From Escherichia coli (GTDB lineage Bacteria; Pseudomonadota; Gammaproteobacteria; Enterobacterales; Enterobacteriaceae): DNA of 64,000 nucleotides. The DNA is taken from assembly GCF_003334385.1 (NCBI RefSeq), contig NZ_QOWN01000006.1; one strand, 5' to 3'. The number at the start of each line of letters is the position of its first letter. The stretch's first letter is position 1. The notes under the pieces were generated by a model. That model saw nothing but the letters and a program-made list of their open reading frames with translations, did no database searches and had not been told where the DNA came from. Position numbers and translations under genes: made by a program. This document shows positions 25,377 to 25,575 of this stretch, piece by piece.

Positions 25377-25405
25377 AGAAAAAACCCCGCCGGTGGCGGG
25401 GAAGC
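25377..25405 (-). terminator. fliC intrinsic terminator (CCCCGCC-ACCG-GCGGGG followed by T6)
   Basis: Minus-strand GC-rich hairpin followed by TTTTTTCTG. Confidence 0.8.
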
Positions 25406-25419
25406 ACGTTGCTGACAAA

Positions 25420-25545
25420 TTACCATTCATGTTGCCGGATGCGGCGTAAACGCCTTATCCGGCCTACAAAAATGTGCGAATTCAATAAATTGCAATTCAA
25501 CTTGTAGGCCTGATAAGCGCAGCGCATCAGGCAATTTGGCGTTGC
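25420..25545. repeat. REP/BIME palindromic units (GCCGGATGCGGCG...CCTTATCCGGCCTAC / GTAGGCCTGATAAGCGCAGCGCATCAGGC)
   Basis: Canonical E. coli REP consensus in inverted orientation. Confidence 0.8.
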
Positions 25546-25575
25546 CGTCAGTCTCAGTTAATCAGGTTAGGACGA

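Follow-up and report, generated by a model that had tools for sequence, protein, structure and literature searches.

The 3′ untranslated region (3′UTR) of the flagellin gene fliC is, in Escherichia coli K-12, the source of FliX, a small RNA (sRNA) described by Melamed et al. (eLife 2023; PMC10578931), and the question raised by the locus analysed here is whether a strain that carries another flagellin allele has kept this RNA, and how generally E. coli has done so. The stretch of DNA analysed, referred to throughout as the window, comprises 64,000 nt of E. coli contig NZ_QOWN01000006.1 (assembly GCF_003334385.1). An earlier note, made from the sequence alone, had proposed the fliC 3′UTR of this strain as a candidate source of FliX and had advised caution over its conservation.

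The published properties of FliX are those of the K-12 RNA (PMC10578931). A species of ~200 nt is sigma-28-dependent and bound by Hfq (co-immunoprecipitation), and a shorter form of ~100 nt, FliX-S, includes one REP and is the more active. FliX represses rplC, rpsS-rplV and rpsQ fusions, and its overexpression leads to lower fliC mRNA levels and fewer flagella. The FliX-M1 mutation is a 3-nt change in the seed (GTCAGCAACGTG to GTCACGTACGTG; PMC10578931, supplementary file 3) which abolishes binding to rpsS, and the change in the seed alters the number of flagella in K-12. MotR, a sigma-28-dependent sRNA that acts in the opposite direction, forms with FliX an ‘accelerator and decelerator’ pair characterised in K-12. 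The originating paper gives conservation as being among some Enterobacteriaceae, with the sRNAs detected in EPEC and Salmonella RIL-seq data (PMC10578931).

The fliC gene and its 3′UTR

The parent gene in the window encodes a full-length flagellin, matched by the NCBIfam profile NF005953 (FliC/FljB) with 729 bits across residues 1–570. Its central region was 99.8–100% identical to that in 67 genomes, one of which is labelled O10:H32; the allele is thus of the H32 type with 570 aa, whereas the parent fliC of K-12 is H48 with 498 aa. The 70-nt fliC 5′UTR of the window is the same as the K-12 fliC(-70) fragment printed in supplementary file 3 of PMC10578931. At the level of sequence, sigma-28 dependence is represented by a promoter motif at 27391–27365 (one mismatch), an intact fliC and an intact fliA. 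Sigma-28-type promoter matches numbered 10 in the window against 1.6 expected; such matches on the plus strand, each with one mismatch, were also seen at 27484–27510, 44 nt upstream of the fliD start, and at 41426–41452. The coordinates of the features of the locus are collected in Table 1.

Table 1. Features of the fliC-fliA region of the window, with the evidence for each.
Feature	Position	Strand	Evidence
fliD, divergent, upstream of fliC	27554..28960	+	ORF list
fliC promoter motif, sigma-28 (FliA) type, TAAAGGTTGTTTTACGACAGACGATAA	27365..27391	-	1 mismatch to TAAAG-N14-GCCGATAA
fliC, flagellin, 570 aa, H32-type allele	25576..27288	-	ORF list and NF005953 profile
FliX homologue, full length, 194 nt (K-12: 195 nt)	25379..25572	-	Alignment to b4827
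Imperfect direct repeat of the seed, CUGACGGCAACG	25540..25551	-	Direct repeat D2, MFE structures
REP1, GCCTGATGCGCTGCGCTTATCAGGCCTAC	25504..25532	-	Inverted repeats I1 and I4; weak naRNA4 (REP) match
A/U-rich spacer between the REPs, 36 nt	25468..25503	-	IHF-like site, RNase E-type motif cluster, FliX-S 5′ end equivalent (~25483)
FliX-S equivalent, ~105 nt: REP2, seed and terminator	25379..25483	-	Homology to FliX-S primer and gBlock sequences, PMC10578931 supplementary file 3
REP2, GTAGGCCGGATAAGGCGTTTACGCCGCATCCGGC, the REP kept in FliX-S	25434..25467	-	naRNA4 41.9 bits over REP hairpin, inverted repeat I3, pattern search
Variant cluster AUGAAUGGUAA (K-12: AUAAAGCGCAA), 4 substitutions directly 5′ of the seed	25420..25430	-	Alignment to K-12
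FliX seed core UUUGUCAGCAACGUGCUU, 18 nt, same as K-12; holds the FliX-M1 GCA triplet	25402..25419	-	Alignment, PMC10578931 supplementary file 3
Intrinsic terminator, 7 G-C pairs, 3-nt loop, U6	25379..25401	-	Terminator scan
Sigma-28-type promoter motif upstream of fliA; next transcription unit past the terminator	25282..25308	-	Pattern search
fliA ORF, downstream of fliC	24537..25256	-	ORF list

The TAA stop codon of fliC occupies 25578–25576 on the minus strand, and from it the 3′UTR runs for 174 nt to the foot of the terminator stem and for 197 nt to the end of the T-run, in agreement with the ~200 nt given in the earlier note, whose range for the terminator (25377–25405) brackets the structure. 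Read 5′ to 3′ on the minus strand, the 3′UTR consists of 40 nt of unique sequence, REP1, the A/U-rich spacer of 36 nt, an inverted REP2, 32 nt of unique sequence and the terminator. The inverted REP palindromes announced in the note are present (25532–25504 and 25467–25434), its range of 25420–25545 being slightly generous but right. The terminator is formed by CCCCGCCACCGGCGGGG followed by TTTTTT (stem 25401–25385, T-run 25384–25379), and is the sole minus-strand terminator-like site that our scan found in the neighbourhood; as judged from sequence, its 3′ hairpin and U-run are of the type seen in Hfq-binding sRNAs. As regards coding potential, a single ORF of 40 aa or more touches the 3′UTR (25554..25691, minus strand); it was rejected as a coding reading of the region, for it lies out of frame within the end of fliC and reaches just 22 nt into the 3′UTR.

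Elsewhere in the window, the MotR sequence was located at 1451–1545 on the minus strand, 100% identical to that of K-12, with its promoter motif TAAACTTTCCCAGAATCCTGCCGATAT just upstream (1552–1578, minus strand). Matches at the Rfam gathering level were also recorded for DsrA (47091–47177, minus strand, 102.5 bits), for RseX (55580–55669, plus strand, 96.8 bits) and for three tRNA genes (15285–15584, minus strand).

Homology to FliX of K-12

In RefSeq, the K-12 MG1655 genome carries an ncRNA feature fliX (b4827) at 2001912..2002106, which begins 3 nt past the stop codon of fliC and extends to the terminator of that gene. Alignment of this feature with the window, a check that the earlier note had named, covered its full length: positions 25572–25379 were identical in 187 of 195 columns (96%), with a single 1-nt gap and no rearrangement, so that the outcome in which the two 3′UTRs are unrelated is excluded. 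The 18-nt seed core, the terminator stem and both REPs are unchanged. The 3′UTR has thus been conserved in spite of the different fliC allele (H32 here and H48 in K-12, yet 96% identity), and the proposal that it is a candidate source of FliX gains support from this homology and from the unaltered seed. The marks by which FliX can be recognised in DNA were all found, namely the position, homology over the full length, a seed with the GCA triplet of M1 at 25411–25409, and a 3′ stem-loop with a U-run. We therefore regard the stretch 25572–25379 on the minus strand as very probably the orthologue of the K-12 sRNA FliX, attached here to an H32 flagellin allele. The locus as such is already known: another E. 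coli strain has it as a published, annotated sRNA.

The window sequence departs from FliX of K-12 by seven substitutions and the lack of one U. The first three nucleotides of the RNA are UCC in the window and UUG in K-12, and the exact 5′ end of the RNA may consequently differ between the two; the cloning 5′ ends given in the published oligonucleotide table are TTGTAACC... for FliX and GAATTTGCAC... for FliX-S (PMC10578931). One T-to-C change lies at 25478 in the spacer, six nt into the FliX-S equivalent, four substitutions form a cluster directly 5′ of the seed, and the U-run of the terminator is U6 as against U7. Among 10 aligned strains with a long 3′UTR, the cluster haplotype of the window was present in five, that of K-12 in four (including O157:H7) and an intermediate in one; the cluster is therefore an ordinary E. 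coli polymorphism and not private to this strain. The CC at nt 2–3 and the C in the spacer were, within the same 10-strain sample, seen in the window alone.

The REP-containing element

The two REPs in opposite orientation, with the A/U-rich spacer and its IHF-like site between them, form a unit that we take to be a BIME-1-like mobile repeat. The candidate IHF-like site, ATTCAATAAATTG at 25480–25492 on the plus strand, has one mismatch to the consensus WATCAANNNNTTR. With BIME-1 (RIP) elements the unit shares the two inverted REPs (inverted repeats I1, I3 and I4) that flank a spacer of ~36 nt, rich in A and U and with an IHF-like site, and also the dispersal of many copies on the chromosome: across 5426 complete E. 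coli genomes, the REP segment of the 3′UTR recurs at 160,727 places, with a median of 28 in each genome, where the repeated element corresponds to the central 125 nt of the 3′UTR. A related second copy of REP2 lies within the window at 62948–62981, where shuffled sequences lead one to expect 0. Unlike BIME-1 (RIP) elements in general, the element of the window is located within an mRNA 3′UTR and would form the body of a trans-acting sRNA, with the regulatory seed outside the element.

A search of the 3′UTR against Rfam 15 matched no FliX family. The naRNA4 family (RF02564), a model derived from REPs, gave 41.9 bits on REP2, below its gathering score of 59.5 and over one hairpin only, its first, and ES036 (RF02751; CssrF) matched 25470–25511 on the plus strand with 38.1 bits, where the gathering score is 37.6. 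Neither identity was adopted, the former being below threshold and the latter at threshold on the opposite strand, and the repetition of REP/BIME sequence explains both; the ES036 match is probably a generic match to a BIME-1 spacer and not a gene.

Predicted structure and possible masking of the seed

The 194-nt RNA of the window was predicted to fold with -68.4 kcal/mol, and its z-score of -3.5 against dinucleotide shuffles therefore indicates structure beyond chance. FliX of K-12 (-69.7 kcal/mol, z = -3.9) showed the same architecture, in which, for both alleles, one REP is predicted to pair with the other and the terminator hairpin to remain free.

An imperfect direct repeat, D2, places UGACGGCAACG (25540–25551) and the seed sequence UGUCAGCAACG (25407–25417) on opposite sides of the BIME. 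In the predicted full-length fold of both alleles, CUGACGG (nt 22–28, at 25551–25545 in the window) forms pairs with UGUCAG, the 5′ half of the seed, whose unpaired probability is 0.00–0.09; for UGUCAGC in full-length FliX the values are 0.00–0.06. FliX-S is without the CUGACGG partner. From these models we infer that full-length FliX has the 5′ half of its seed masked and that cleavage in the spacer would release it; such masking would agree with the report that FliX-S is the more active form (PMC10578931). The direct repeat could be a footprint of the origin of a BIME-containing 3′UTR, or a device for masking the seed.

Predicted targets and processing sites

In a windowed duplex search, the seed was predicted to pair with rpsS at +243..262 with -19.8 kcal/mol for the wild-type sequence and -13.6 kcal/mol with M1, in agreement with the published footprint (PMC10578931); the windowed search was used in place of unrestricted RNAduplex on the whole 36-nt single-stranded segment, which produced long interior loops. 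The rpsS gene itself lies outside the window. Given that 5424 of 5426 E. coli genomes have an rpsS of at least 99% identity, the window strain almost certainly has the same target. The cluster of four substitutions removes some of the peripheral pairs that are predicted for FliX of K-12 with rpsS and rplC. For fliC, an M1-sensitive duplex with FliX was not reproduced in silico on the segment -70..+220, for either K-12 or the window; the best sites in that segment gave weak pairing (-13 to -15 kcal/mol) that M1 did not diminish.

Prediction of RNase E sites, a further check named in the earlier note, placed a cluster of RN|WUU motifs in the A/U-rich spacer near the 5′ end of FliX-S in both alleles, while the motif scan found none at the annotated FliX +1 in K-12 or in the window. 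The T-to-C change in the spacer removes one RNase E-like motif at the FliX-S 5′ end.

Proposed mechanism

The steps of the mechanism come from work in K-12, and transcription, processing, Hfq binding and regulation are inferred from it for the window strain. The fliC gene would be transcribed late in flagellar assembly from its sigma-28 promoter, giving the mRNA that would serve as the parent transcript of FliX, and transcription would end at the GC hairpin and U-run at 25401–25379. Cutting of the 3′UTR from this mRNA would yield the form of ~200 nt together with the more active FliX-S of ~100 nt (REP2, seed and terminator), both of which would bind Hfq. The seed UUUGUCAGCAACGUG would then pair inside coding sequences, those of the S10-operon genes rplC, rpsS and rpsQ and that of fliC, and this pairing would lower target expression and the number of flagella, so that FliX would act as a late brake that opposes MotR.

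Other Hfq-dependent sRNAs of 3′UTR origin that are cut from mRNAs include CpxQ and SdhX. FlgO is likewise a 3′UTR-derived sRNA, from flgL (PMC10578931). FliX resembles these three in sharing its terminator with the parent mRNA, in its endonucleolytic release and in the position of the seed, directly before the terminator hairpin, but differs from them in that it carries REPs and in that its reported pairing is inside coding sequences and not at ribosome-binding sites.

Distribution of the 3′UTR among E. coli genomes

A query of 611 nt reaching from the last part of fliC to the first part of fliA was compared with 5426 complete E. coli genomes, and three classes of 3′UTR emerged; of the 5380 genomes having the fliA-proximal segment, 5374 fall into one of them. 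Strain WP7-S17-ESBL-04 matched the window with 100% identity over 611 nt (25150–25760). Class A has the long 3′UTR, like the window (3502 genomes; O157:H7 and O99:H6, for example). Class B (1009 genomes with at least 80% coverage of the class B query; for example O141:H4 strain P13-6, and SaT040 with a 349-aa flagellin) and class C (863 genomes with at least 80% coverage of the class C query; for example O111:H8) have a short 3′UTR, with ~20 nt from the stop codon to the same terminator and neither REPs nor seed. Between the terminator and fliA all classes are near identical, and the fliA promoter segment (25282..25308) is kept across all three. Classes B (H4-type) and C (H8-type) amount to ~1870 genomes, or ~35% of the 5426, which are without the long 3′UTR body, and the caution over conservation expressed in the earlier note was therefore justified. 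In strain 2013C_3653 (487-aa flagellin, short class), a 10-nt deletion lies directly past the terminator stem and leaves three T; judging by the remaining T-run, termination between fliC and fliA might be weaker there.

The exact 28-mer that spans the seed and the terminator arm (25402–25429) was present in 2246 genomes (41% of 5426), and ~1250 genomes with the long 3′UTR (~23% of 5426) have at least one change in it; variants include UUUGCCAGC in AR_0114, CAGCAAUGUGC in JCM 20135 and GUGCAUCC in UPEC 536 and BH100. A scan of GTDB with one genome per species for the exact 18-mer TGTCAGCAACGTGCTTCC gave four hits and no enterobacterial locus, likely because an exact pattern passes over variant seeds like those of JCM 20135, AR_0114 and UPEC 536. 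The four hits fell in unrelated bacteria (Rhizobium, Rhodothermia, Collinsella and Sedimentisphaerales) and are read as chance, ~9 chance hits being estimated for an 18-mer in 298 Gb.

That ~35% of E. coli genomes do without FliX argues that its function is modulatory. A wider reading, which we put forward tentatively and with a little less confidence than doubt, is that FliX is an accessory RNA which travels with the fliC (H-antigen) allele and is not a fixed part of the flagellar circuit, its seed being an imperfect duplicate at the flank of the BIME that would be unmasked by cleavage. The presence or absence of FliX in linkage with the fliC allele, and the polymorphism of its seed, may not have been described before; this part is modestly new, and concerns the population and not a property of the window.

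Alternative explanations

The 3′UTR could be a BIME-1/REP insertion with generic roles only, that is, shielding of the fliC mRNA against 3′ exonucleases, DNA binding by IHF or gyrase, and insulation of fliC from fliA, with no trans-acting RNA function in this strain. The repetition of the central 125 nt (median 28 copies per genome), the Rfam matches to REP and BIME-spacer sequence, the IHF-like site, and the ~35% of genomes in which fliC and fliA are otherwise intact without the element are all consistent with this. The seed, however, belongs to neither REP but to the unique stretch that separates REP2 from the terminator, and it is the same as in K-12, where a 3-nt change within it abolishes target binding and alters the number of flagella (PMC10578931); generic roles of the element and an sRNA role are, moreover, compatible with each other, and we consider it very unlikely that the generic roles are the whole explanation. 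Less probable still, to the point of being hardly credible, is that the relevant RNA lies on the plus strand, as an ES036/CssrF-like sRNA antisense to FliX. The ES036 score just over the gathering level speaks for such an RNA, but the match spans only 42 nt of the BIME spacer and the REP edge, with indels and broken pairs, the scan found no promoter-like or terminator-like plus-strand site around it, and any copy of the BIME-1 spacer would give such a match.

The alternative nearest to the reading of the locus as a FliX orthologue is that FliX is made, but that the changes in this strain shift its processing or target range, which would render it a functional variant and not an equivalent of the K-12 RNA. 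The changes do lie at the annotated 5′ end, at the 5′ end of FliX-S and beside the seed, and peripheral pairs with rpsS and rplC that are predicted in K-12 are lost. The cluster haplotype is nevertheless common (five of 10 sampled strains), the predicted pairing of the core seed with rpsS has not changed, and the overall predicted fold is that of K-12, and we judge a shift of this kind to be unlikely, though of the three alternatives it is the one with most to commend it.

Implications

That the sequence of the published regulator is kept intact in a strain with an H32 flagellin is of use for annotation: fliX is a RefSeq feature in K-12, and the corresponding stretch of the other sampled genomes has no feature listed. 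The decelerator is missing from about a third of sequenced E. coli (O141:H4 and O111:H8 strains, for example) and another quarter have an altered 28-nt segment, and the MotR/FliX circuit of K-12 should accordingly not be assumed in every strain; these natural FliX knock-outs and variants offer a means to test the share of FliX in flagellation. If FliX does follow the fliC allele as an accessory RNA, MotR would be unopposed in the H4- and H8-type lineages that are without FliX, and recombination of the H antigen would also rewire the post-transcriptional control of flagella and of ribosomal protein synthesis.
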